From a candidate division WOR-3 bacterium (GTDB lineage Bacteria > Hydrothermota > Hydrothermia > UBA1063): 64,000 nucleotides of DNA. Positions 1,652 through 33,794 of this stretch are shown one piece after another (position 1 is the stretch's first letter; every line of letters starts with the position of its first letter). Below the pieces are notes generated by a model. The model was not told the origin of the DNA. It saw only the letters and a list, made by a program, of their open reading frames with translations, and made no database searches. The stretch is from NCBI GenBank assembly GCA_039803305.1, contig JBDRYG010000001.1, positions 5 through 64,004 of the forward strand, read 5' to 3'. The position numbers and the translations under genes were made by a program.

Positions 1652-4600
1652 GATGGTTTTTGACCATTCTGTTGTTTGTAATTCCCACAGCATCAAAGGC
1701 ACAATCAATTTTTCCTATTGACTCGATACAGGGGTACGGCCCATCCTCCCCTTATGTAAACAGAACCGTTACAACCGTGGGTGTAGTCACTGCAACAGTA
1801 CAGGATTGGACAAGGTATATAAGGGGGTTCTTCATTCAAGATGCTGATGCCCCATGGCATGGAATTTATGTTTACACAGGAAATCTTACAGTAAATGTGG
1901 GAAGAGGCGACTCTGTAATGGTTACCGGGCGAGTACAGGAGTACTATGATCTTACGGAAATAGTTCCTTCCTCATCTTCAGATATCATCATTATTAAGAA
2001 AGGAGTTAGGATACCAAAACCTATTAAAGTTACATGTGCAGAAATAAATACTGAGCCCTATGAAGGCGTGCTAGTCAGAGTTGATAGTGTAACTGTCATA
2101 AATAGTAATGTGGGAAATTACCAGTTCCAGATACAAGATCCACAGGGAAATACGGCTCTTGTACAAAACTGCTCTGGTTTTAGCTACAACCCGAGCAATA
2201 ACGACTTTATACCCTCAATAGTAGGAATTGACTATTATTCTTATGGCGCATTTAAAATCGTGCCAAGGGGAAATGAAGATTTAATTTTTAGCGGTGATGG
2301 TACGGGGCATTTTTACTTTATAAATAACATTATTGCCACTGATGAAGAAAAAGAGGTACTTTTACAGGTTTCAGGAGACTCCCCATTCCAGATAAATGCG
2401 GTAAAGTTACTACTACCACAAGGATTCCAACTAACCGGCACTATAATCCTGGAGGGGGATGGATTTCAAAACGCAACATTCTCCATCACACAGGACACAA
2501 TTATAATAACAGGAACTCAAATAACAGAAACAAGGACAGGAATCATTAAATTTACAAAACTTCTTGCACCCTCTATACCAGGAATTTACGCATTTCAGGT
2601 TTTCACTTTATCCCAATCTTCATTCAGGGCTGTGGCTCACCCACCGAAGCTGAATGTTCTGAGTATCGTGGGTGGAGGGAACGTAGCTATAACCCCCCTT
2701 ATAATCCCTAAGAACACTCAAACACAGATAAATATTGCTATTTCAAATATATTTGGAACATTAAGACAGGTGAAGATCGTACTCCCTTCCGTTGCAATAG
2801 GCTGGGATAGAAGGGTTACTTTGATAGGGGAAGGAGTCTCTACAGCTATTGTGCAGTTTGCGGAAGACACTATAATCATAACGAATGCTACTATAGATTC
2901 AATGAGACCAGCTTCCATCGTTTTTGATAATTTTTCATTTTTAAGCGACAGCTCCCCCTTAGCTCAATTTACAATACTTACGGGAACGCAAGACTCAGTT
3001 GGTCCAGTCCAAAATCAACCAAAGGTATTCATTGCATTAGAGGACACAACAGTAAAAATGAAGTATTTCCATATTCCCTTAACCCAGAGCTTCTTACTTG
3101 GGAAGACAGTAATGGTCAAAGGTATAGTTTCGGGTGTCATAGGTGACAGAACTTATGTTCAAGACTCAACGGGCGGAATCATAATATATAGAGGTCCAGC
3201 ATTAACACCAAATACTGTCGTTAAGTTAATAGGACAGTATAATGAATATAGAAATTCTGCACAACTTTATTCCGCAAGCTTAATTGCAAATTTTGGGGTT
3301 AGTTCTATTCAACCTGATTCACTGGAATTTCCACCTCAGGAAATACACGAGGGAAGATTGGTAAAAATTTTTAATGTCTCACCTCCTGATGGTGTTACAT
3401 ATTTTATACCAGACAGCGCACTTATTTTCAAGGATTCACTAAACAGGGAATATAGGGTCTACATCTCCTCCTCTACAGATCTCGCTTACAAACCTATACC
3501 CCAGGGGAAAGTTGACATTTTAGGATGTGTATATCAATTTGATGCAAACTATAACATCCAGCCCCGGGGCACCAAAGACATCATTGCCAAAGGAAATGGT
3601 ACAGGATCCTTTTTACTTCACCCTTCGTACACATACTACGATTCAACAAGGAACATAAACCTTCTTGTCTCCTCACTTTATAGCCCAATAAAAAGCATAG
3701 AATTAAGAGTAACTGGTGCTTATATTGATACAGTAATACCTGTTAGCAGTGGATTCTATAATCCGGTTGTTGATTCCTACTTCAGGGATACAGCTTCTCT
3801 GTACCTTAAAATCTCAGGGGGCATTGAACTAACAGAAGATACAATAACTTTAGTCGGTCTTAGACCACTCTCTAATGTTGAAGCAATTTCCTTTTCCATC
3901 AAAACATCCGTTGACTCAGGGGGATTTCTCTCACCAGTATTGACCGATCCTGTTCTATACGTTGGTACACCAATCGGATATGCACGCAGAAACGGGCCAG
4001 ATGGATCAACCCCAGAATTTTTAAACAAACAGTTTACAGTAATAGGTGTGGTTACCGCTCCTCCTTACATCTTTTCAACTACGAGAACATCCATGTATAT
4101 TCAGGATGAAACCGGTGGAATTAATGTCTATTATGCTGGTAGCCTCATAAACTTTAACGAAGGAGATCTTATCAGAGTAAAAGGAACAATTTTGCAGTAC
4201 AACGGTCTTACAGAAATATCCCCTGCATCTCCTCAGGATTTTGTTCTTCTTGGACAGGGCTTTCCTTTTGATACCCTCAAACTTCGCCCGGGGGAACCAC
4301 TATCGGAAAATCTGGAGGGGCTTCTAATCCAGGTAGAGGGGACCTGTGACAATATCCCTTACTCATCAGGATCGGGAAAGGCATTTACAATATATAATGG
4401 TCTTACACCTATTGATATTTATGTTTACAACACAACATCTATAGACCTTTCCAATGTGACAAATGGTAATGTTTACAGAATTACGGGGGTTGTGGGACAG
4501 TACGATGCCACAATACCTTATACATCCGGATATCAATTATTACCAAGGTATCAGAAAGATATCGAGTTTATCCAGACCACGGTAACTCCTGTTGTATCTA

Positions 4601-4890: not shown

Positions 4891-6316
4891 CTATCTTTTC
4901 AAAAAAATTCGCAAAGTTAAATAAAAGGCCCTCGCACCAAGCGGGGGCCATAACTTGAAATCCCATAGGAAGTCCTTCTTCAGTAGACTCAAAGGGAATT
5001 GACAGTGCGGGAATCCCTGCAAGATTAGCTGGAATATTGAATATATCAAGATAATAGGCACTTACAGGATCTATCTCCTCATCAACTTTCGGAGGAAGGG
5101 AAGGCGAGACAGGTGATACTATCAAATCGACCTCCGCGAAAGCATTTTCCAAGTCCTCTTTAATAAGTCGCCTAACTTTTAAAGCCCTCAGATAATATGC
5201 ATCATAATAGCCATGAGAAAGGGCAAAGGTACCAACAATTATCCTCCTCTTAACCTCTTCTCCAAAACCTTCACCCCTGGTTTTTACGTAAAGGTCAACT
5301 AAATTCTCCTCCCGTTTTCTCAATCCATAACGGACACCGTCAAATCTTGCAAGATTTGAAGACGCTTCTGACATCGCTATAATCTGATAAACCTCTACTG
5401 AATACTTAATATGGGGCAATCTCAACTTTTTAATCTTTACACCTTCATGTTCGAGCACAGAAAGAACTTTCTCAAAATTCACTTTAATCTTATCATCCAT
5501 TTTTGCTTCCTCAATGATATCAGGATACCCTACCACTAAATCTTCTGGTGACGAAAAATTCATCAGTTTATCTAACGCGGGTACCTCAAAGGGCACTGAG
5601 GTAGAGTCCATTGGATCATATCCGGAGATCACAATAAATAACCTGGCAAGGTCCTCAGGATTTCGTGCCATGGGACCAATCTGATCAAGGGACGATGCGA
5701 AAGCTACAAGCCCAAACCTCGATACTCTACCATATGTTGGTTTTAAACCATAGATACCGCAAAAGGAAGCGGGAAGTCTAATGGAACCCCCTGTATCGGA
5801 ACCAAGAGAAACATGTACCTCACCGGCTGCAACGCTCGCTGCCGAACCACTGGAAGATCCCCCCGCAAGATGTTCTGGATTCTTAGGGTTTCTAACCGGA
5901 CCGTAATAGGAGTAAGTACCCAGCGCCCCCATAGCAAACTCATCCATATTAAGCTTTCCCATTATTATTCCACCGCTGGAAAGAATCCTTTCTACGACCG
6001 TCGCATTATAAAGAGATTTATATCCAGAAAGAATTCGTGACGCGCAAGTTGTGCCAAAACCTTTTACGTTTATGTTGTCTTTTATTCCAACCGGAATACC
6101 ATAAAGAAGGGGATAACTACGAATGGTATCCTTCATCCTCTCTAACTCTCTAGCCCGCTCTATAGCATATTCTTCAAATACCTCAATAAAGCTATTAGTT
6201 ATAGGTTGTGATTTTTTTATTTCTGAGAGATAGTACTCTACTACGTCAATAGGTTTTATGTCGCCTTTGCTGTAAAGCTTATGGATTTCCGATATGCTGA
6301 GCCTTTTCAAATCCAT
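4883..6316 (-). CDS. gatA: Glutamyl-tRNA(Gln)/aspartyl-tRNA(Asn) amidotransferase subunit A
   Basis: Amidase signature GGSSSGSAASVAAGEV and Ser-cisSer-Lys region; 477 aa typical length; N-terminus MDLKRLSISEIHKL typical of GatA. Confidence 0.85.
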   Translation of the reverse strand: MDLKRLSISEIHKLYSKGDIKPIDVVEYYLSEIKKSQPITNSFIEVFEEYAIERARELERMKDTIRSYPLLYGIPVGIKDNINVKGFGTTCASRILSGYKSLYNATVVERILSSGGIIMGKLNMDEFAMGALGTYSYYGPVRNPKNPEHLAGGSSSGSAASVAAGEVHVSLGSDTGGSIRLPASFCGIYGLKPTYGRVSRFGLVAFASSLDQIGPMARNPEDLARLFIVISGYDPMDSTSVPFEVPALDKLMNFSSPEDLVVGYPDIIEEAKMDDKIKVNFEKVLSVLEHEGVKIKKLRLPHIKYSVEVYQIIAMSEASSNLARFDGVRYGLRKREENLVDLYVKTRGEGFGEEVKRRIIVGTFALSHGYYDAYYLRALKVRRLIKEDLENAFAEVDLIVSPVSPSLPPKVDEEIDPVSAYYLDIFNIPANLAGIPALSIPFESTEEGLPMGFQVMAPAWCEGLLFNFANFFEKIVT

Positions 6317-6423: not shown

Positions 6424-8316
6424 ATGAAAGGTTACGCCGGTAAAATTCTCAGAATAAATTTAAGCACAGGAGAAATTAAAAAAGAAGAGCTGTGTGAACA
6501 CTTTGCCAGGAAGTACCTCGGGGGTGTGGGTTTTGGCGCCAAGATGGCTTATGATGAAATCCCAGCTAAGGCTGACCCACTCGGTCCCGAGAATAAAATT
6601 ATAATAACGCCTGGGATGCTTGTAAATACAGGTCTTCCTACTATGTCTAAGACTGCTCTAAATTTCAAATCACCCTTGACTGGGGGATACGGAAGGGCAG
6701 TGGTAGGTGCTTACCTTGGCGAAGAATTAAAGAAAGCGGGCTATGATTGTCTTGTCATAGAAGGTAAAAGTAGTAAGCCAGTTTACATTTTGATTGAAGA
6801 TGATAAAGTTGAAATTAGAGATGCCACTCATCTCTGGGGCATGCTTACCTCAGAAACCCATAAGAAACTCCAAGAATTACACGGAAAGGTAAGAACTGGA
6901 ATTATTGGCCCCGCAGGTGAAAAACTGTCCAAAATTTCTGAAGTTGATTTCGAGGAAAGACAGGCAGCAAGAGGCGGTGTAGGAGCTGTGATGGGTTCAA
7001 AAATGCTAAAGGCAATAGCCGTGCGAGGAACAGGAGAGGTTGAATATCATGACAAAGGGATGCTAAGGGAACTAATAATCAAGTGGGGTAAGATTCTTAA
7101 AGACCATCCGGCGACCGAAGCGGATATGAAATATGGGAGTGGAGAATTTTATGAATGGGTTAATAGAGAAAGAGGTACATTTCCGTCGCTCAACTGGCGC
7201 TTCGGTTATATGCCAGTCTATGACGAATTGAAAGAAGGTGAAAAATCCAAGCTTGATCCCTACTATTGGGCGCCTAAGTATACAGTTAAAAACAGGCCTT
7301 GTCCACATTGTACAAAACCTTGCGGTAGGTATATTAAAATTACAGATGGGAAATACGCTGGTACAGAAGTTGAAGGGGTTGAATATGAAGTCCTTTACTC
7401 CCTTGGCGGTGTCCTAGGAATTGATGACATTGGGGCAGTTGCGAAGATGAATAAACTTTGCGACGATTACGGTCTTGATGCAATATCAGCAGGTGTAACC
7501 TTGGCATGGGCTATGGACTGCTACGAAAATGGCTTGCTGACAAAAGAGGATACTGATGGCCTTGACTTAAGATTCGGAAATGATGAAGCCGCCGTTAAGG
7601 CAATCGAGATGATGGGCAAGAAGGAAGGAAAATTGGGTGAACTCTTATTTAATGGTTCAAAAGAAGCTGCAGAGAAGCTTGGAAAAGATTCCTGGAAATA
7701 TGCAGTTCATATTAAGGGCCTTGAATTACCAGCATATGACATCAGGGGTTTAAAGGGTGTTGCCCTCGCCTTTGCGGTTTCGACAAGGGGTGGCTGCCAC
7801 TTAACTGGTGGTGCTTACGGTATCGAACTGACCGGAAAATGGTGGAAAATGGAGGGAGTAGACAGAACAAAGGGTGAGTGGAAGGGTTTTGAAATAAAGA
7901 CCCTTGAAGACCTAATGACCCTCTACGATACAACTGGCGCATGCAAATTTTCAAGACACATGTTCTTTATTGAAGCATTCCCTGAGATGATTAAAGCAGT
8001 TACAGGTTGGGATATGAGCGTTGAAGAGCTATGGGTGATTGGCGAAAGAATATACAACATTACAAAGTTATTCAACGTCAGAGAAGGCTTCTCCAGGAAG
8101 GATGACCATCTCCCATGGAAAGTCATGAATGCTCCTATTCCTAAAGGGCCATCACAGGGTCTTTATGTATCCGAAGAAGAGTTCAACAAAATGCTTGATG
8201 AATACTACATTGCTCGTGGATGGAATAAAGAGGGTATTCCCACAAAGGCCAAACTTTCTCAACTTGGACTTTACGAGTATATAGATGAACCACATGTAGC
8301 CGGTAATGTAAAATAA
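6424..8316 (+). CDS. aor: Aldehyde:ferredoxin oxidoreductase family (tungstopterin enzyme, AOR)
   Basis: N-terminus MKGYAGKILRINLSTGEIKKEE, typical AOR length (630 aa), Cys-containing cluster-ligand region CPHCTKPCG; strong SD AAGGAGGT at -9. Confidence 0.8.
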   Translation: MKGYAGKILRINLSTGEIKKEELCEHFARKYLGGVGFGAKMAYDEIPAKADPLGPENKIIITPGMLVNTGLPTMSKTALNFKSPLTGGYGRAVVGAYLGEELKKAGYDCLVIEGKSSKPVYILIEDDKVEIRDATHLWGMLTSETHKKLQELHGKVRTGIIGPAGEKLSKISEVDFEERQAARGGVGAVMGSKMLKAIAVRGTGEVEYHDKGMLRELIIKWGKILKDHPATEADMKYGSGEFYEWVNRERGTFPSLNWRFGYMPVYDELKEGEKSKLDPYYWAPKYTVKNRPCPHCTKPCGRYIKITDGKYAGTEVEGVEYEVLYSLGGVLGIDDIGAVAKMNKLCDDYGLDAISAGVTLAWAMDCYENGLLTKEDTDGLDLRFGNDEAAVKAIEMMGKKEGKLGELLFNGSKEAAEKLGKDSWKYAVHIKGLELPAYDIRGLKGVALAFAVSTRGGCHLTGGAYGIELTGKWWKMEGVDRTKGEWKGFEIKTLEDLMTLYDTTGACKFSRHMFFIEAFPEMIKAVTGWDMSVEELWVIGERIYNITKLFNVREGFSRKDDHLPWKVMNAPIPKGPSQGLYVSEEEFNKMLDEYYIARGWNKEGIPTKAKLSQLGLYEYIDEPHVAGNVK

Positions 8317-8320
8317 TTCA

Positions 8321-8350
8321 AAAGGGGCCCCGATCGGGGCCCCTTTATAT
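8321..8350 (+). terminator. Rho-independent terminator after aor: aaaggggcccc-gatc-ggggccccttt followed by tatataat
   Basis: Perfect GC-rich palindromic hairpin immediately after the aor stop codon. Confidence 0.6.
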
Positions 8351-24172: not shown

Positions 24173-25123
24173 TTAGTAAGCTCCCGCCATCTTTTTCAAA
24201 ATTTCAATTCTCTTCTCAATGGGTGGGTGGGTACTCCACAAGGTTTTCCAGAAAGAGACTTTTTTCTTTACATCTCTCTTTGAGGGTTCAGTAAAAAATA
24301 GATGTGCAACCTGCTCCTTAACCTTCAGCTCGTATGGATAGTTTGCAATTTTTTCCAGTGCCGATGCCAAAGCAAGAGGATTCCTTGTAATCTCAACAGA
24401 ACCTGCATCGGCCAGATACTCCCTCGCACGAGAAACGGCAAGGGATAGGATCATTCCTATAAATTTGGCTATCACAAAGATCACGAACAATGCGATGGAT
24501 GCGAGGAGCCACATAAGAATTAGCTCATTCCCTTTCCTTGATCTTACCGATCTTGCTACTTGGGAAGCAACAAACAAGTTTACCTGTGCGAACACGACGA
24601 AAGCTACAAAGGTACCGAGAAGCACTGCAGTAAGCATAGCATAGAGGATGTCATAGTTTTTTATGTGAGAAATTTCATGGGCAATAACTCCCGAGAGTTC
24701 CTCTCGGCTCATCATATCCAAAAGGCCAGAAGTAACACAAATTTTACCGTTTTGGGGACTCCTGCCAGTTGCAAAAGCATTAGGGACATGAACATCCATA
24801 ACATAAATCTCTGGTTTGGGTATCCCAGCAGCAATGGAGAGTTCCTCAACTAAATTAATGAGCATTCTCTCCTTATAATTACCCGGGTTCACAGGTCTTG
24901 CACCGACTAACTTCAAAATCTTCTTATCGCCTCTTAGATAAGCTGTAATAGTACGGATAACTGCGACTGATAACAGAGATAGGGTAAAAACGGGTATCTC
25001 AGCCTTTATAGCTTTATCTAAAAATATTCCCAAGAACAAGAAAAATATAATGAGCAGTGATACTAAAACAATACTTTTTCTCTTATTCTTATTTGCAAGA
25101 GAAACAAAGTCCAGTGCAGCCAT
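24173..25123 (-). CDS. htpX: HtpX-type M48 zinc metalloprotease (paralog 1)
   Basis: HEISHIKNYD HExxH motif, N-terminal TM helices. Confidence 0.8.
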   Translation of the reverse strand: MAALDFVSLANKNKRKSIVLVSLLIIFFLFLGIFLDKAIKAEIPVFTLSLLSVAVIRTITAYLRGDKKILKLVGARPVNPGNYKERMLINLVEELSIAAGIPKPEIYVMDVHVPNAFATGRSPQNGKICVTSGLLDMMSREELSGVIAHEISHIKNYDILYAMLTAVLLGTFVAFVVFAQVNLFVASQVARSVRSRKGNELILMWLLASIALFVIFVIAKFIGMILSLAVSRAREYLADAGSVEITRNPLALASALEKIANYPYELKVKEQVAHLFFTEPSKRDVKKKVSFWKTLWSTHPPIEKRIEILKKMAGAY

Positions 25124-25138
25124 AACCTGCTCACCTCC

Positions 25139-26092
25139 TCACAAAACCCCTGCCATTTGTTTTAAAATTGCAACCCGCTTTTCTATTGGCGGATGGGTGC
25201 TCCAGAGGTTAGCCCACAGGGAATCCTTTTCGGAAAGGGAACTTTTCTTTGGATCACTGATAAAAAGGTGGGAAACGGCATCACTTACCTGCATCGGTCT
25301 TGTGTAATTGGCTATCTTCTCTAAAGCCGATGCAAGAGCTAAAGGATTCCTTGTGATACTAACAGAACCAGCGTCTGCCATATATTCCCTCGCCCTGGAA
25401 ATGGCAAGGGCCATGAGTCTCCCTATGATCGCAGCAAATATAACCACTACAAGGAGAATCAGCCACAAAAGAATTTCTCCACCTCCGCTGTCTCTATCTC
25501 TCCTTGCCCTTCTACCACCCCAGTAAAGGTTAAACCTGATAAAGTCAGCAAGAATAACAATTGCACCTACGAGAACCGCAACCATCGTCATTGTAAGTAT
25601 GTCCCTGTTTTTCACATGACTGAGCTCATGAGCCATAACCCCTTCTAATTCTTCCCGATTTAACAATTTTAAAAGCCCTGTAGTTGCGCATACCGATGCA
25701 TGCTTTGGATCCCTGCCTGTGGCAAAGGCGTTGGGAGAAGGCTCATCCATAACATAAACCTTCGGCATGGGAAGTCCAGCTGCAATACTTAGCTCCTGCA
25801 CGACATTTACAAGCTGCCTTTCTTCGTAGTCAGAAAGATTTGGTTCTCTTGCCCTGACAGACGCGAGGACAATTTTATCCCCCCAGTAATAGGACACTAA
25901 AGCCTGGAACAGCGCCAGGATTACTGCTAAAAATGTATAAAAGCCCCCGCCCCCAAAGAAATGATCGAGAAGCCTGCCAATAAGGTACAAAATCACAAAA
26001 AGGGTAAGGACTAAAAGAAATGTTCTCCTTTTATTCCTTGAAGTGATCTTTACGAAATCAAGGGCACTCATAAATAACACCTCCTTTCTCAA
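25139..26092 (-). CDS. htpX: HtpX-type M48 zinc metalloprotease (paralog 2)
   Basis: HELSHVKNRD HExxH motif; end-to-end collinear with paralog 1 (e.g. ITRNPLALASALEKIANY shared). Confidence 0.8.
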   Translation of the reverse strand: MRKEVLFMSALDFVKITSRNKRRTFLLVLTLFVILYLIGRLLDHFFGGGGFYTFLAVILALFQALVSYYWGDKIVLASVRAREPNLSDYEERQLVNVVQELSIAAGLPMPKVYVMDEPSPNAFATGRDPKHASVCATTGLLKLLNREELEGVMAHELSHVKNRDILTMTMVAVLVGAIVILADFIRFNLYWGGRRARRDRDSGGGEILLWLILLVVVIFAAIIGRLMALAISRAREYMADAGSVSITRNPLALASALEKIANYTRPMQVSDAVSHLFISDPKKSSLSEKDSLWANLWSTHPPIEKRVAILKQMAGVL

Positions 26093-26733
26093 AACTCAAC
26101 CCTAACCCCACCCCTCTCCTGGGGGAACTCAAGAAAAGACTCCAACTTAAATCCAAACATTTTTGCTACTAAATTAGAAGGAAAAGAAAGGCAAAGGGTA
26201 TTAAGCCGTCTCACACAGTCATTATAGTACTGTCTTGCATAGGCTATTCGGTTTTCAGTGCTTATTATCTCTTCCTGCAAAATCATAAAGTTCTGTGATG
26301 CTTTAAGTTCGGGATAGTTCTCCACAATAACAAGAATCCTCTTTATGATATTCGAAATGCTACCTTCAATGCTCCCCTTCTCCTTCATGTCAGTAACTGA
26401 AATTGCTCTGGTGCGTAATTCAGCGATTTTTTCGAGAAGCTCACGCTCATGTTTCATATAGCCTTTAACCGTTTCCACAAGGTTCGGGATAAGGTCGTAT
26501 CTTCTCTTGAGCTGAACATCAAGTTGAGAAAAAGCTTCCTTCACTCGCACCCTCCATCTTACCAGCGCGTTATAAGTAAGGAAAACATAAAATGTGATAC
26601 AAACTATTATGATTACCAATACATGGGTCCACTGCATAGTTAATATAATAGTCCCGTCTGCTTGATTTTTCAATATCATCTTCCTACAAATCAGTTTTAT
26701 CCCTTTCTGGTTCCAACACGCTCCTTGTAACAC
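26089..26733 (-). CDS. lemA: LemA family membrane protein; true start likely the internal Met near 26637 (MQWTHV...)
   Basis: TM helix followed by YNALVRWRVRVKEAFSQLDVQLKRRYDLIPNLV, characteristic of LemA; 4-nt overlap with the downstream htpX. Confidence 0.7.
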   Translation of the reverse strand: MLQGACWNQKGIKLICRKMILKNQADGTIILTMQWTHVLVIIIVCITFYVFLTYNALVRWRVRVKEAFSQLDVQLKRRYDLIPNLVETVKGYMKHERELLEKIAELRTRAISVTDMKEKGSIEGSISNIIKRILVIVENYPELKASQNFMILQEEIISTENRIAYARQYYNDCVRRLNTLCLSFPSNLVAKMFGFKLESFLEFPQERGGVRVEF

Positions 26734-26764
26734 CCTTACCCCTATCTTGACATTTCATCCCTGT

Positions 26765-26784
26765 AGTTATACAATTGTATAACT
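26765..26784. promoter_or_regulatory. Perfect 20-bp palindrome AGTTATACAATTGTATAACT abutting the ATG of the small-ORF/dinB operon; candidate repressor operator (SOS-type)
   Basis: Exact inverted repeat read from the sequence; lies in the divergent lemA / small-ORF-dinB intergenic region. Confidence 0.5.
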
Positions 26785-27030
26785 ATGGAAAGAGTAGACA
26801 AAAAGGTAAGCGTAGTAGCAAGATTTAACGGTAATAGTTCCGTCTACCCCCTTTATATGGAATACTCTGGATACACCGTAAAACTAAAAAAACCCGACGC
26901 CGTATGGAAGGAAAGAATAGGCAGAAACCTAATAACCCGTTTTTCTGTTTCCGACGGGGCAAATCGTTACATTATTGCCCTAAACCATGAGACGCTGGAG
27001 TGGAAACTGGAGGTCATTATAAATGAATAG
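26785..27030 (+). CDS. Small hypothetical protein (81 aa) translationally coupled to the Y-family polymerase gene
   Basis: ORF ends 8 nt inside the dinB ORF start; beta-rich composition; no recognisable motif. Confidence 0.4.
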   Translation: MERVDKKVSVVARFNGNSSVYPLYMEYSGYTVKLKKPDAVWKERIGRNLITRFSVSDGANRYIIALNHETLEWKLEVIINE

Positions 27031-28312
27031 CGGGAGAATAGAACTCGGCACAGACTCCATGGGTATTTGTGAATATTTAGACAATTTTCAGCAAGAGAGT
27101 TTTTCATCAGATAAAAACCCAAAAAGTAGAACTTTTATGCTTATTGATATGGATGCTTTCTTTGTCTCGTGCGAGGTGGCTGTTCGTCCAGAACTAAAAG
27201 GTAAACCCGTCGGCGTAGTTACCGGTGCCCAGAGACACGGTGTGGTGGCATCGGTTTCCTACGAAGGGAGGAAATATGGAATAAAGGCTGGTACACCCGT
27301 TTATAAAGCAAAAGATTTATGCCCGGAAATAATACTAATCCCGGCAGACATTGCAAAATACGCTTACATTTCAGAATCCATCATGGAGTACCTGAAAGAA
27401 AAATTCAAAAAAGTAGAGGTCTTTTCAATAGATGAAGCTTTCGTAGACATCACCGGTGAAAAAGATCCACTAAAACTTGCAACAGAAGTAAAATCTTATA
27501 TTAAAAGAACCTTCAGGGTTCCCCTCACCATAGGGATAGGTCCGTCAAGGGTAATTGCAAAGATGGCTTGTGAAATCTCTAAACCTGATGGACTTATGCA
27601 GATTAAAGCAGAAGAAATTCTTCAGAAACTCGGTCACTTGGAAGTAGATGAAATACCGGGAATAGGCCAACGGACCGGCGACGCTCTCAGGAATATGGGC
27701 ATAAGAACCATAAGAGATTTATGGGTTATTGACGAGGATACCCTAATAAGGCGCTTCGGTATCCGGGGAAAATGGTACAAAGATATGGCAATGGGGAAGG
27801 ATGCAGGTTTCTTTACCCTTCTGGACCAAGGATTGCCCTTAAAGAGTATAGGACACTCCGAAACCTTTCCGAGGGATATTATGGACCCGGAGGAAATAAA
27901 GACCTATACCCTTTACCTATCGGAAAAAGTGGGAAGAAGGCTAAGAAAGCATGAACTCATGGGATATGGCATATGGGTCTACTTGAGATACGCCGATTTT
28001 ACCGGCGATAGTATTTCAAGAAAGTTTACCAAACCCTTCTTTACCACATCGGAAATATATCGCCGAGCAATTTTCCTTATCCAGAAAATAATTGACGGGA
28101 AACCTATAAGGCTTATAGGAGTAGCGGTATTCGGGCTTAAGCCCTTAAAACCACAACTCTCGTTGTTTGAAGAGGATCTGAGAGATGTAAGACTTGATTT
28201 TGCGCTTGATAAAATCAACGATATCTATGGCGATTTTACCGTCCGCAGGGCTCGGCTTGTGGGCATTCCAGCTGTCCATCATGTAATTCCTCCAAGGGGT
28301 ATACCAAGGTAA
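27023..28312 (+). CDS. dinB: DNA polymerase IV (Y-family translesion polymerase); alternative starts at about 27059 or 27137
   Basis: FMLIDMDAFFVSCE catalytic Asp motif, SIDEAFVD, HhH region IPGIGQRTGDAL, length about 400 aa. Confidence 0.85.
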   Translation: MNSGRIELGTDSMGICEYLDNFQQESFSSDKNPKSRTFMLIDMDAFFVSCEVAVRPELKGKPVGVVTGAQRHGVVASVSYEGRKYGIKAGTPVYKAKDLCPEIILIPADIAKYAYISESIMEYLKEKFKKVEVFSIDEAFVDITGEKDPLKLATEVKSYIKRTFRVPLTIGIGPSRVIAKMACEISKPDGLMQIKAEEILQKLGHLEVDEIPGIGQRTGDALRNMGIRTIRDLWVIDEDTLIRRFGIRGKWYKDMAMGKDAGFFTLLDQGLPLKSIGHSETFPRDIMDPEEIKTYTLYLSEKVGRRLRKHELMGYGIWVYLRYADFTGDSISRKFTKPFFTTSEIYRRAIFLIQKIIDGKPIRLIGVAVFGLKPLKPQLSLFEEDLRDVRLDFALDKINDIYGDFTVRRARLVGIPAVHHVIPPRGIPR

Positions 28313-29100: not shown

Positions 29101-29132
29101 AAAATAAAAAGGGGTCCCCTTAAGGGGACCCC
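29101..29132 (-). terminator. Rho-independent terminator for the 1546-aa gene (ggggtcccc-ttaa-ggggacccc with a T-run on the minus strand)
   Basis: Perfect 9-bp GC stem; A-tract 29101-29110 on the plus strand equals a T-tract after the hairpin on the minus strand. Confidence 0.6.
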
Positions 29133-29153: not shown

Positions 29154-32100
29154 TTACTTCGCGAGTATTAGCTTACTTGTGAAAGTCTTCTTAGGAGTAA
29201 TCATCTTCACAATGTAGACTCCAGAACCTACCGCTGAACCTCTTTCGTCTTTACCATTCCATCTTACAGTATGGTAACCAGCCTCTCTGGTGCCCTTCAC
29301 AAGAGTCGCCACTTTCTGACCGGTGACAGAGTAAATGCTTATCTCCACTTCGCTTCTCTCTGGTAATGCATAAGCAAATTCAAAGCCCCTTGAAGCAGAT
29401 GAGAGACTCTTCGCATTAAACGCAAATGCCTTCGGCTTCAGATCAGTAATGGAAGTAACTTCAAAGGAAATATATCCAGTTTCCGGAAATCTTGAAGGAT
29501 TGCGCCACGCTGAATTATCAAGGGCAACGAAGTAAAGGTCTACATTATCCCCGATGTTAAGACCCGGAATCGTGTAATAATAAGTGGAACCAACTATGCT
29601 ATCATTTGTTGCAAAAGCAAAATCTGCACCATTAATGGAATAGTAAAGAGTATCACGATAAATCCCTGAAGGATCAGTAATTATAACACTTATCCAGATA
29701 TTGTTTACACCACCTGTATCATAAGCGAAGGCGGAGAACTGTGGACCAACAAAGTCAGTAGTAATACTTACCTCCGTTGAGTAAGTCATCGTATCTGGAT
29801 TTACATAATCCATCCTCACCACATAGAAGTATTGGGTTTCATGTTGAATCGTGTAGTCTGTAAATGTTATGTCACTGGTAGCACCAAGAACATCATAGGG
29901 TCCGCCAGAGGTAGTCCCCCTTAAAACCGTGTATTTTTCAATGTATTTTGTGGTACCCTCATCTTCCACTTTACCTGTAATGGCATAACGGACTAAGGCA
30001 GGGTTTCTCTTGGCATTGGAAGGTGTATGATTCGCCACATATGCTTTACTGCGTGGGAAGTAGGTAACTACACTCCTTATAATCCAGTCGAAACCAACCC
30101 AATCATACCAGGTGCTGGAAGAGGCTTCAAAATATGTGCTCCTGTTTGTATTAGATCCAGCATCACTTGTGGGATATGGTGCATTCGTAGCTGTCCACTC
30201 TATTCCAACATGATAATCACCATTTACCATTATATTGGCGGAACTTAGATCCAGCCTCAGATAATTAGGATACACGGCTGGTGAGGTTATAAGGGTATCA
30301 AAGAGGACCTCACCGGGTATTCCATTGTTGTCTGCATATATCTTTACATGGATGGGGGAAGCTGTGCCAAAAAGCAGTGCTACTACACTGTCAACCCTTG
30401 CAGGTGTATATTGAGGAGTAAATCTTACAGCAACTACATCGCCAGGATAAAATCCCGTAAAGTAGTACGCAACTCCACCGTAAATCCTCAAGCTCTGTCT
30501 TGGTCTTGCCCAGCCAAGTCTTACTCCGGGATCAGGGTCTCTCACTGCACCTATTGAAGGTGTTCCCGCATCATAAGCAATTAGTTTCCACCAGGCACCG
30601 TGTCCCTGCCACCCATTCCCGTTTACATCCCCTACAGCAAGGTAGCCATCAAAGAGAGTACCCGCAGGACGACCCGGAATTTCAACCAATATCGTATCAA
30701 TTCCCGGTTCAAAATCCTGTGAGAAGGATACTATTACAGTATCATTGACAACTGCAAATGCCTCCACACTGAATGGGGAATCATCACTAACAACAATAAT
30801 TAATGTATCTGGACCTGTATTGTAAGTATATGTGGGTGTTCTCAGAGTCTGGACCATAGGAGGTGTCGTGTCGGGTGCAAAGCTCACACTAAAGTCATCA
30901 ACCCACCAGTAGTACTCATCCCTTGCACCATAATGGAAGGCAATTCTGAAGTACTCTGCCGAGCCAATTCTGGGGATTATGTGAGGTGTTAAGTCCACCG
31001 AGCGGTATCCACTGTCGGACTCATTTGAATATTTCGCAAGTTCAATCCAGGAATTGCCGTCATCGAAGGATATTAAAACGCGGCCTGAATCTAAAGTAGA
31101 CGTTGAGTAGTCTCTATACCAGTGCCAGTAAGAAAGGGTGTATGTACCGTATCCCGGAATCCTTAACCTTGGAGAAATAAGCCAATCATTTTGGTTTTCT
31201 ACGGGTGAAAAATAGACCCTTGCAACGGTTCTCGCAGGTGTTGCTGCAACAAATCTGTGCCAGTCATTATTGTTTACCGTAGGAACTCCCTCATCACCAC
31301 CGTCAATTATTTTCCAGCCTCCAAATGGAGGATTTATGGAGTTCTCCCATGCTTCGTCAAAGTTATGGGCATATGGCAAATCTTGAGCATAGGGCCAGAC
31401 ATACAGGGTAGTTGATACAGTATCATTTTCAGGAATTGCATCTCCTGCTAATTCAACTCCAGCATAAAGAGTAATTAAGCCAGTATCTGGTGGAACAAGA
31501 GGCTCCTGGAAATTATAGGTCATAATCATTCCTGCAGGTAAATTCCCCGTCCAGGTCTCAAAAACCGTGTCCACACCACCAAGGGTGTAAAACAGAGTAA
31601 GGGAAGTAATTGGATTCAATCCGGAGTTTTTGAGAGTTATAGAGACTGAATTATTATCACCCTGAATTACAGGTTTGGGAACATTTACAGAAAGAATCTG
31701 GGCATCAGTATCAGCAGCTGTGGGTTCAGTTACAAATACCCTGACGGAATCAATATACATGTTATTACCATAAGCACTTTTCGCTCTAAAAGCCACATAA
31801 AGCTGTGTTCCACCCAGAAAGTCGCCAATCTCAACCTCCTCCGGTGCCCAACCTGCGGTAGCACTGTATCTCTGATACCCCTGCAGTGTTGTAAAGTTAG
31901 TTCCATCAAGAGAGTATTCAACATATATGGAGTCATAACTTGTTGAGTATCCGGGGTCATGGTACATGTAGAACCTCAACTTAACTTTTCTTGAAACAGG
32001 ACCGACATTTATTACTGAGGTTATGAGGCGGGCTTGGGAACCTGCACTTGCATTGTAAGATGGATATCCAGCCATAGCGGGCGCATCAAGGGGCGTGCAA

Positions 32101-33794
32101 GTGGGGTTAGAACCTGAGGTATATCTCCCCCAGTTGTAGGAACCGCTTATTATCTGCCTTGTCCATCCAAGAGGTGGGAAATCTGGTGGAAAGAATGTGG
32201 ATGCAGCTACGGTAGAATCATCCCATAATTCAACATATAGTTTAGCTGTATTATTGTTATGGTAATCATCAGGATAAACTCCTACCTGTAAGGTATCAAA
32301 GCCAAGATTGGAAAAATAAATGTGTACCGGCATTGAGACCACAGCGTATTCGCCGGGATTTAATGCCACAGGATATGAAAAACCTTGAGATGCACCCACA
32401 TTTACAAATGCATAACCTAAATCAACCGAGGAGACGGGTGTATTTCCCGAGTTAACAACCACAACATAGATCGAATCTGTAACACCGCGTTTTAATACAG
32501 GAGCAATTCTTCTAGCATCTAAAACACATAGGTCAGAGTTAAATATTCTTTGTTCCATTTCCACAATGTGTCCACCGCAGGTAAGCACAAGCTCATTACC
32601 AGGTCTCCAACGGTTTACATCCGCAATCTTGACACCGTAATCGGCAGCTTCAGCAATCTTGGGTAAAATCCCAACAAGTGGCCTTCCAAAAGGAGAGTAG
32701 GCAAACCAGAGGGAAAAGCTAGTATTAGTAGTTCCTGTATTTGTTAGGACAACTTCTTGTCCTGGAATTTCTCTAAGGAAATCCCCTATTTCTATTTCAT
32801 TATTTCCCGCTATTCCCCAGGTGCTGTAAAGTGCATAGGCAACTCCGGAAAATGCACTTCCCGTCCAGTTCCATACCGAAAGCTGATAGGAAGTAGAGCC
32901 GTGCACAATGCAAACCTCAGGCCCAGGCATTGCGGGATTTATGTCGCCAATGGCGATATCATTGACACTCGAAAGCCCCGTATATATAGTTTGAGTCTGC
33001 CACGAAGTTCCATTCCAGTAAGCCATGGCAAAATCTGACCCACCACCAGTATAAACTTCATTTCCAGGTAAATCAGGATTTACATCCCCTATTGCAACTG
33101 CTCTATATCTCTGTGTCCTTCCCGTAAATGTTACCCTGACTGTATCAAAGGATGTCCCATTCCACTTGGCGATCATGAAGGCGGAAGGATTATTATTTGC
33201 CACGTTAAATACAATATCCCTTGCTACACCATCGTTGTCCGCATCGCCTATTACAATATTATTGATATAATCTCCAGAACCTACTCCAATACTATCCCTC
33301 GCCACCCAGTTAACCGCCCCAGGATCCCATTCAAACCAGCGAAGCCATATTTTTCCGGCAACAGCAGCATTATCCGCAGTCAAAATATCGGTATACTCGT
33401 CTCCATCCACATCCCCGATACATACCGCATGCTCTGTAGCGCCCGATGGGAAGGAATATGGAGTTTCTATCCTGAACTTCCTCGTTCCAAAAGCCACACT
33501 TGAGGTGTCAGTAGCAATAATTAAATACCTTGTTCCACCACTTTGAACCGATACAACCCTTATAGTATCGTCACTTAAGCCCTTAAATTGTGTCCCTACA
33601 GCTACCTGTCTCGTTAGGTTTGCTGAAGAACCATAGAATATATAGTTTGTATCAATCAAAGGAGCAGGAACCTTGGACATACTGCCCACCCATATAGGGG
33701 TTTCAACAGGTATGGGGGGCACATCATCAACCTTTGCTTTCTGGGCAGTTGCCATACCCAGAAGCAATATCAACACTATAAACCCTTTAGGCAT
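29154..33794 (-). CDS. Very large secreted protein with FG-GAP/integrin-alpha-like beta-propeller repeats, multiple beta-sandwich domains and a T9SS C-terminal sorting domain
   Basis: Signal peptide MPKGFIVLILLLGMATAQ; repeated xIGDVDGDxxxD / IGDADNDG / IGDVNPDLPGNEV / IGDINPAMPGPEV calcium-binding-like FG-GAP motifs; tail EISIYSVTGQKVATL...GVYIVKM. Confidence 0.6.
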   Translation of the reverse strand: MPKGFIVLILLLGMATAQKAKVDDVPPIPVETPIWVGSMSKVPAPLIDTNYIFYGSSANLTRQVAVGTQFKGLSDDTIRVVSVQSGGTRYLIIATDTSSVAFGTRKFRIETPYSFPSGATEHAVCIGDVDGDEYTDILTADNAAVAGKIWLRWFEWDPGAVNWVARDSIGVGSGDYINNIVIGDADNDGVARDIVFNVANNNPSAFMIAKWNGTSFDTVRVTFTGRTQRYRAVAIGDVNPDLPGNEVYTGGGSDFAMAYWNGTSWQTQTIYTGLSSVNDIAIGDINPAMPGPEVCIVHGSTSYQLSVWNWTGSAFSGVAYALYSTWGIAGNNEIEIGDFLREIPGQEVVLTNTGTTNTSFSLWFAYSPFGRPLVGILPKIAEAADYGVKIADVNRWRPGNELVLTCGGHIVEMEQRIFNSDLCVLDARRIAPVLKRGVTDSIYVVVVNSGNTPVSSVDLGYAFVNVGASQGFSYPVALNPGEYAVVSMPVHIYFSNLGFDTLQVGVYPDDYHNNNTAKLYVELWDDSTVAASTFFPPDFPPLGWTRQIISGSYNWGRYTSGSNPTCTPLDAPAMAGYPSYNASAGSQARLITSVINVGPVSRKVKLRFYMYHDPGYSTSYDSIYVEYSLDGTNFTTLQGYQRYSATAGWAPEEVEIGDFLGGTQLYVAFRAKSAYGNNMYIDSVRVFVTEPTAADTDAQILSVNVPKPVIQGDNNSVSITLKNSGLNPITSLTLFYTLGGVDTVFETWTGNLPAGMIMTYNFQEPLVPPDTGLITLYAGVELAGDAIPENDTVSTTLYVWPYAQDLPYAHNFDEAWENSINPPFGGWKIIDGGDEGVPTVNNNDWHRFVAATPARTVARVYFSPVENQNDWLISPRLRIPGYGTYTLSYWHWYRDYSTSTLDSGRVLISFDDGNSWIELAKYSNESDSGYRSVDLTPHIIPRIGSAEYFRIAFHYGARDEYYWWVDDFSVSFAPDTTPPMVQTLRTPTYTYNTGPDTLIIVVSDDSPFSVEAFAVVNDTVIVSFSQDFEPGIDTILVEIPGRPAGTLFDGYLAVGDVNGNGWQGHGAWWKLIAYDAGTPSIGAVRDPDPGVRLGWARPRQSLRIYGGVAYYFTGFYPGDVVAVRFTPQYTPARVDSVVALLFGTASPIHVKIYADNNGIPGEVLFDTLITSPAVYPNYLRLDLSSANIMVNGDYHVGIEWTATNAPYPTSDAGSNTNRSTYFEASSSTWYDWVGFDWIIRSVVTYFPRSKAYVANHTPSNAKRNPALVRYAITGKVEDEGTTKYIEKYTVLRGTTSGGPYDVLGATSDITFTDYTIQHETQYFYVVRMDYVNPDTMTYSTEVSITTDFVGPQFSAFAYDTGGVNNIWISVIITDPSGIYRDTLYYSINGADFAFATNDSIVGSTYYYTIPGLNIGDNVDLYFVALDNSAWRNPSRFPETGYISFEVTSITDLKPKAFAFNAKSLSSASRGFEFAYALPERSEVEISIYSVTGQKVATLVKGTREAGYHTVRWNGKDERGSAVGSGVYIVKMITPKKTFTSKLILAK

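Follow-up and report, generated by a model that had tools for sequence, protein, structure and literature searches.

What governs the gene for a Y-family DNA polymerase in a 64,000-nucleotide stretch of DNA from a candidate division WOR-3 bacterium (hereafter the window), and does the exact inverted repeat at the head of its operon act as the operator? An earlier note on this DNA took the repeat for a LexA-type operator on an operon made of a small open reading frame (ORF) and dinB. Based on a comparison of sequences within WOR-3/Hydrothermia and across distant lineages, we consider that the palindrome is probably an SOS operator for a dimeric LexA-type repressor at a leaderless imuB-C/dinB promoter. 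The features that enter the argument are listed here in window coordinates:

26747–26752, + strand: -35 hexamer TTGACA, from a promoter scan, invariant in 5/5 WOR-3 lineages
26764–26785, no strand: perfect 22-bp palindrome, proposed LexA-type SOS operator, from sequence, shuffles and conservation
26767–26782: 16-bp box TTATAC-AATT-GTATAA within the palindrome
26768–26781: invariant 14-bp core TATACAATTGTATA within the palindrome
26770–26775, + strand: -10 hexamer TACAAT inside the palindrome, from a promoter scan; the lexA promoters of loci L165, L196 and L212 are arranged alike
26781–26785, + strand: predicted transcription start, giving a 0–4 nt leader, placed according to the -10 hexamer
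26785–27030, + strand: 81-aa all-beta protein, putatively a standalone ImuB-C-like protein (DUF6504-related) and partner of the polymerase, from homologs, PF20114 matches in the family and an AF2 model
27023–28312, + strand: Y-family DNA polymerase (DinB/Pol IV-like), 429 aa, from Pfam and NCBIfam

Palindrome, promoter and operon

The 20-mer AGTTATACAATTGTATAACT lies exactly at 26765–26784, where the earlier note had described an exact 20-bp inverted repeat, and the full perfect dyad is longer than that, at 22 bp (TAGTTATACAATTGTATAACTA, 26764–26785). The note had the palindrome end one base before the ATG of the 81-aa ORF; instead, it abuts and overlaps the start codon, with which it shares its final A (26785). 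A site of this kind is hard to obtain by chance, as the 20-mer has zero matches with three or fewer mismatches in 100 shuffles of the window, and gap-free palindromes with arms of at least 10 are expected at 0.11 per shuffled window.

The promoter scan finds TTGACA-N17-TACAAT at this position, which agrees with the sigma-70 consensus at 11 of 12 bases and has a 17-nt spacer. The earlier note had missed that the -10 hexamer falls inside the palindrome, 17 nt after TTGACA. The gap between the -10 hexamer and the ATG is only 9 nt, with no Shine-Dalgarno sequence, and because of it the small-ORF/dinB transcript is predicted to be leaderless or to have a leader no longer than 4 nt. LexA operators are dyad-symmetric sites of about 14–20 bp over the core promoter of a DNA-damage gene, and the 22-bp palindrome likewise lies over the -10 hexamer of the imuB-C-like/dinB operon and its predicted start. 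A role as an RNA hairpin or terminator was considered and rejected: the palindrome would be almost wholly untranscribed from this promoter and has no T-tract.

The second gene of the operon is a DinB/Pol IV-like polymerase with its catalytic core, HhH motif and little-finger domain all present (PF00817, IMS, 4.9e-43; PF11799, IMS_C, 2.1e-23; PF11798, IMS_HHH, 3e-6); among NCBIfam models it matches those for DNA polymerase IV best, with every score under the curated equivalog cut-off. The claim that the stop of the 81-aa ORF lies inside the start of a DinB gene is borne out by these IMS domains and by an 8-nt overlap between the polymerase start and the small ORF stop, which suggests that the translation of the two genes may be coupled. 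The overlapping start, ATGA(A/G)TA(G/A), is kept in three orthologous WOR-3 loci (L003, L005 and L008), and a GTG takes its place in a fourth (L001).

The small protein has close homologs in eight clusters only, at 69–86% identity, and those that carry a name all belong to candidate division WOR-3 or Candidatus Hydrothermia. A profile search extends the family to 73 representatives and ties the window protein to it; 43 of 80 family members match PF20114 (DUF6504), and the window protein itself has no Pfam match at E ≤1, PF20114 included. A C-terminal tryptophan (W73) is invariant across the 80 sequences of the family, basic residues are conserved, and the AF2 model of the 81-aa protein is all-beta with a pLDDT of 94.7. 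Standalone ImuB-C proteins (GSU0042-like) have been described as beta-strand proteins of ~80 aa encoded between lexA and a Y-family polymerase, and in Geobacter the operon made up of lexA-imuB-C-polY is a single transcription unit induced by DNA damage (PMC3765255; PMC6511836). The 81-aa family matches these descriptions and, with its DUF6504 matches, we putatively assign it to the standalone ImuB-C proteins.

Conservation of the box in WOR-3/Hydrothermia

The window matches the NCBI assemblies GCA_039803285.1 and GCA_965648845.1. Orthologous loci (L001–L010) represent four WOR-3/Hydrothermia lineages besides that of the window, and the small ORF and polymerase are paired in all of them. Across the five lineages the upstream DNA cannot be aligned save for TTGACA and the core TATACAATTGTATA, and 8 of the 14 invariant core bases fall outside the -10 hexamer, such that the core is conserved among genomes with diverged flanks beyond what the promoter needs. 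The outer positions of the box read T...A in the window and L001 and G...C in L005 and L008, which leaves the dyad intact; a symmetric outer change of this kind is characteristic of sites that a symmetric dimer reads. From the end of the -10 hexamer to the start codon there are 7–10 nt in WOR-3. The -10 hexamer itself accounts for part of the conservation of the core.

The neighborhood upstream of the box differs among these genomes: lemA-htpX is found there in the window and L001 only, and gatB in the other WOR-3 loci. The box is conserved where lemA and htpX are absent and so goes with the small-ORF/dinB promoter rather than with its divergent neighbor. A role in controlling lemA-htpX, whose promoter the earlier note had considered within reach of the site, was rejected on this account, since the box is kept in L002–L010 with neither gene adjacent.

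The WOR-3 DNA examined has yielded no lexA. The earlier note saw no lexA in the window, and tblastn agrees, finding none in the window, in 10 kb past each of its ends, or in the 20-kb orthologous loci L001–L010. When the DNA-binding domain of LexA from the distant locus L134 served as a query for homologs, two near-identical fragments and no WOR-3 LexA came back. No second strong box occurs in ~200 kb of WOR-3 DNA, which holds no classic SOS genes; five sites with two or fewer mismatches were counted there vs. 4.1 expected, and no regulon is apparent. These WOR-3/Hydrothermia genomes are small, at about 1.05–1.2 Mb.

The cassette and its boxes in other lineages

Outside WOR-3, the small ORF, the polymerase and lexA form a recurrent cassette. 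We compared 84 distant loci, four of them looked up individually and 80 taken from a metagenome scan. All four individually examined members have lexA (LexA_DNA_bind plus Peptidase_S24) in the cassette, in either gene order, and by tblastn the polymerase lies directly downstream of the small ORF in 71 of the 84 loci, with lexA present in 52 (41 ordered lexA-small-dinB and 11 small-dinB-lexA). Among distant loci with enough flanking sequence, lexA is adjacent and on the same strand in 24 of 26. An adjacent lexA is missing in WOR-3, in L213 and in two of these 26 sufficiently flanked loci, which places WOR-3 among the few such groups. Among cassettes that begin with the small ORF, 35 of 40 distinct promoters have the form TTGACA-N16-18-TAnnnT with the start codon 6–12 nt further on (mostly 6–7), so the leaderless design is a trait of the family.

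Most cassette promoters carry GAAC-N4-GTTC boxes, in the form TTGACA-(A/G)GTGAACAAATGTTCAC-TATACT, and two loci (L160 and L163) have GGTTGCCACATGACAACC-like sites that fit the Geobacter LexA motif GGTT-N10-AACC, as cited in PMC8565304. As known LexA motifs appear at these positions, the cassette promoter can be taken to report the LexA box of each lineage. Read in this manner, the WOR-3 box has direct counterparts. The 16-mer GTATACAATTGTATAC of the WOR-3 loci L005 and L008 occurs exactly in the lexA promoters of L165, L196 and L212, which read TGGTATACAATTGTATACCA or ACGGGTATACAATTGTATACCCGT and place TTGACA 16–17 nt ahead of a TACAAT internal to the box; the lexA genes of these three loci encode LexA_DNA_bind and Peptidase_S24. 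GGTATAC-TAAT-GTATACC stands upstream of lexA in L134, L135 and L145, with the variant GGTATAC-TAAA-GTATACC in L138, and in L213 a leaderless small ORF follows GTATACAATCGTATAC. The motif is therefore seen before lexA itself in other cassette lineages (L165, L196, L212, L134 and L145). Boxes intermediate between the GAAC and GTATAC types also exist (GTATACATTTGTTTAC, GTAAACAAATGTTTAC and GGGTAACAAATGTTACCC).

Two broader scans gave matches of a different nature. The 63 matches to GTATACAATTGTATAC in viral contigs were set aside as unrelated, having no lexA, dinB or small ORF nearby; about half of them belong to a single phage-contig family whose members are related, and several others to a few smaller families that are also repeated. 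A scan of genome contigs with the 14-mer TATACAATTGTATA has unrelated genomes among the matches listed.

The linked repressors differ along with the boxes. The 14 distinct LexAs encoded next to GTATAC-type boxes fall into two clearly different LexA groups, and in all of them the recognition helix opens with S-(G/S)-P-R-A-(A/G/S); S-x-P-R-A is found in none of the ~15 LexAs beside GTGAAC-type boxes, eleven of which have S-T-N and the rest S-P-S or S-T-A. The arginine of S-x-P-R-A aligns with N41 in the S39-P40-N41-A42 segment of helix 3 of E. coli LexA, a segment that contacts bases in the LexA–DNA structure. The small protein of the window scores best against the group with GTATAC boxes, by a marginal difference.

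Judged from sequence, the half-site (G/T)TATAC with its 4-bp spacer derives from GAAC-N4-GTTC, a LexA box of wide occurrence. The earlier note had found no match to the Gram-positive LexA box, and this holds literally, as the site differs from GAAC-N4-GTTC; the dyad and the 4-bp spacer, however, are the same, and we regard the site as a close derivative. When GTGAAC-N4-GTTCAC, the DinR type, is set against GTATAC-N4-GTATAC, 8 of the 12 half-site positions agree: the flanking GT...AC and the inner AC/GT are common to both, whereas positions 3–4 of the half-site are AT here and GA there. In the recognition helix, LexAs associated with GTATAC have P-R-A where GAAC-type LexAs have T-N-G.

Candidate regulators and known operators

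The reading of the palindrome as a LexA-type operator on the small-ORF/dinB operon is supported by the invariant core, by the linkage to lexA in 24 of 26 loci and by the presence of GTATACAATTGTATAC at lexA promoters, and comparative evidence likewise backs the expectation that this lineage's SOS operator would be defined by it. We envision the following sequence of events. A LexA-type dimer would sit on (G/T)TATAC-AATT-GTATA(C/A), from about -15 to +1 of a near-consensus sigma-70 promoter, and, as the site includes the -10 hexamer, the bound repressor would exclude RNA polymerase. Upon DNA damage, RecA-stimulated self-cleavage of the repressor would free this strong promoter, and a leaderless transcript would be translated into the ImuB-C-like protein and then, via the 8-nt overlap and translational coupling, into the DinB-type translesion polymerase. 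The existence of a LexA in WOR-3 genomes, its binding to this site, the transcription start and the inducibility of the operon by damage are all elements that we infer; what the comparison shows directly is the sequence, the promoter geometry, the conservation, the linkage to lexA elsewhere, the identical boxes at lexA promoters and the way helix and box type vary together.

That no lexA was found in the WOR-3 DNA examined bears on the identity of the repressor. A protein other than LexA, for instance a CI-like S24 protein of the kind seen in Bacteroidetes or a helix-turn-helix dimer of other origin, could control dinB in these reduced genomes, and this would account for a lexA that is adjacent in 24 of 26 informative loci elsewhere, yet is neither adjacent in WOR-3 nor present in the WOR-3 DNA examined; non-canonical SOS repressors are also known in the related FCB group (PMC8565304). 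We consider such a repressor unlikely, given that the identical 16-mer stands at bona fide lexA promoters (L165, L196 and L212) and that the Bacteroidetes motifs, GGA-N5-TCC and CTAA-N5-TTAG, are different (PMC8565304). It is also quite improbable that canonical lexA has been lost from WOR-3/Hydrothermia and that the conserved box is now read by a recruited repressor or by the ImuB-C-like protein; if true, this would be a LexA box that outlived LexA and, should the ImuB-C-like protein read it, the first function for ImuB-C.

Two further explanations dispense with a separate repressor altogether. The 81-aa ImuB-C-like protein might bind the palindrome and regulate its own operon, for which one can cite the proposal that ImuB-C is a DNA-binding domain (PMC3765255) and the basic, strongly conserved character of the protein; to us this autoregulation is very improbable. 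We give equally little credence to a site with no regulator, in which the sequence is conserved for its role as -10 hexamer and start of a leaderless promoter and the dyad is incidental. TACAAT is indeed a -10 hexamer, and the context of the start site or of initiation could constrain downstream bases in leaderless genes, but members of the family with GAAC boxes are leaderless too and have quite different -10/start sequences, and the same box is found at lexA promoters that have long leaders and a Shine-Dalgarno sequence. In addition, the outer positions change symmetrically and a perfect 22-bp dyad is not expected by chance. A LexA-type repressor thus remains our preferred occupant of the site.

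The closest known arrangement is that of Geobacter sulfurreducens, in which GSU0041–0043 form lexA-imuB-C-polY (PMC3765255; PMC6511836). Both cassettes have an ~80-aa all-beta protein with a C-terminal tryptophan, encoded by a small gene directly upstream of an active Y-family polymerase, and a LexA-type operator, which here is predicted. In contrast to Geobacter, WOR-3 has no lexA in the cassette or its 10-kb surroundings, a small protein below the Pfam threshold for DUF6504, and an operator whose sequence differs from the GGTT-N10-AACC of Geobacter. The umuDC and yqjX-yqjW (YolD-PolY2) operons similarly place a small accessory gene ahead of a Y-family polymerase in a LexA-repressed unit; however, the small protein described here is neither UmuD (S24) nor YolD, and the polymerase is DinB/Pol IV-like, not UmuC-like. 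The Gram-positive LexA (DinR) box, CGAAC-N4-GTTCG, is also a 4-bp-spaced inverted repeat over the core promoter of a translesion-polymerase operon, with the difference that the DinR type fills the spacer between -35 and -10, whereas the WOR-3 box covers the -10 hexamer and the start site. Finally, the Bacteroidetes operators GGA-N5-TCC and CTAA-N5-TTAG are SOS operators of the FCB group that were discovered, like the one proposed here, from dinB/umuC promoters; their sequence and spacing are different, and the repressor is CI-like there, whereas the repressors linked to the box at other cassette loci are canonical LexAs.

Neither the imuB-C/polY/lexA cassette nor the plasticity of LexA motifs is new: LexA stands out from other regulators of bacteria in that its binding motif has changed many times, and 17 motifs were counted in 2021 (PMC8565304). 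The GTATAC variant of the box and the leaderless design appear undescribed. Within a literature of partial coverage, we found no report of GTATAC-N4-GTATAC among published LexA motifs and nothing on a WOR-3 LexA or on DUF6504. We lean towards the view that GTATAC-N4-GTATAC, together with S-x-P-R-A, is an undescribed LexA motif of several uncultivated lineages and that imuB-C/polY operons are systematically leaderless. Such a motif from uncultivated phyla would be a data point on the co-evolution of operator and recognition helix, as it departs at two symmetric positions from GAAC-N4-GTTC, presumed to be ancestral, has natural intermediates and is accompanied by a change from T-N-G to P-R-A in the helix. 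The box also offers a usable site model with which to predict SOS regulons in WOR-3/Hydrothermia and similar metagenome-assembled genomes, and the near-universal leaderless promoters of imuB-C/polY operons are a feature of the switching-on of mutagenic polymerases that can be put to the test.

Predicted leaderless promoters and the DinB N-terminus

In the small-ORF-first promoters, where the gene for the ImuB-C-like protein heads the cassette, the start codon lies 6-12 nt (mostly 6-7) 3' of a consensus -10 hexamer in 35 of 40 distinct cases. The set comprises promoters from the distant cassette-bearing loci L131-L214 (for example, L131 2222-2259, L154, and L170), together with that of the window (26747-26787). 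Given this short gap, imuB-C-like/polY operons across phyla appear, as a prediction from sequence, to be systematically leaderless.

Downstream, ~33 extra in-frame residues separate the overlapping ATG of the window DinB from its conserved MLIDMDAFF (27023-27136); this N-terminal insertion is missing in the orthologous loci L003, L005, and L008 and is present in a shorter version in L001. The ATG at 27137 could be the alternative, true start of the protein.

LexA helices and lexA promoters

In Thermotoga maritima LexA (PDB 3k2z), T-P-R-G occupies the helix position that reads S-P-R-A in LexAs encoded beside GTATAC-type boxes, a resemblance that hints at a P-R helix type common to these LexAs and Thermotogae.

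Further lexA promoters contain palindromes unlike the common types, namely TATCATTTGA-N8-TCAAATGATA, TAGGGTAAC-AAAT-GTTACCCTA, and GTGAAC-AGGT-GTACAC, which may represent additional, undescribed LexA box variants. These atypical palindromes are found at the following lexA promoters:

L148, about 60-90, upstream of lexA
L207/L208/L211, about 3340-3364
L146
L151/L153

In the L134 group (L134 5217-5314, L136, L144, and L145), the box precedes lexA by 60-140 nt, and the long leader is made up of CTTATC(T/C)CTTA-like units in repeated copies.

Other palindromes and viral matches

Other palindromes in the window are:

8321-8346, perfect and G+C-rich, AAAGGGGCCCCGATCGGGGCCCCTTT, just beyond the end of ORF 6424-8316
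29111-29132, perfect and G+C-rich, GGGGTCCCCTTAAGGGGACCCC, just beyond the end of ORF 29154-33794
5340-5359, 20 bp, within an ORF

The two G+C-rich palindromes are probably terminator hairpins.

Among IMG/VR viral contigs matching the 16-mer box, some have arrays of TGTATACATTTGTAT-like repeats surrounding the match (L254, about 4510-4590; L256, about 800-870), possibly iterons or phage operators, and most of the remaining viral matches are a single conserved coding sequence.

Neighbouring peptidase genes

After lemA, the window has two M48 (HtpX-like) peptidase genes in tandem (24173-26092) versus one in the orthologous locus L001 (8406-9338). A tandem pair of M28 peptidase genes (~845 aa, with Por_Secre_tail) lies just past the window's right end in a near-identical genome (L216 4738-9999), both copies sharing internal DNA repeats.
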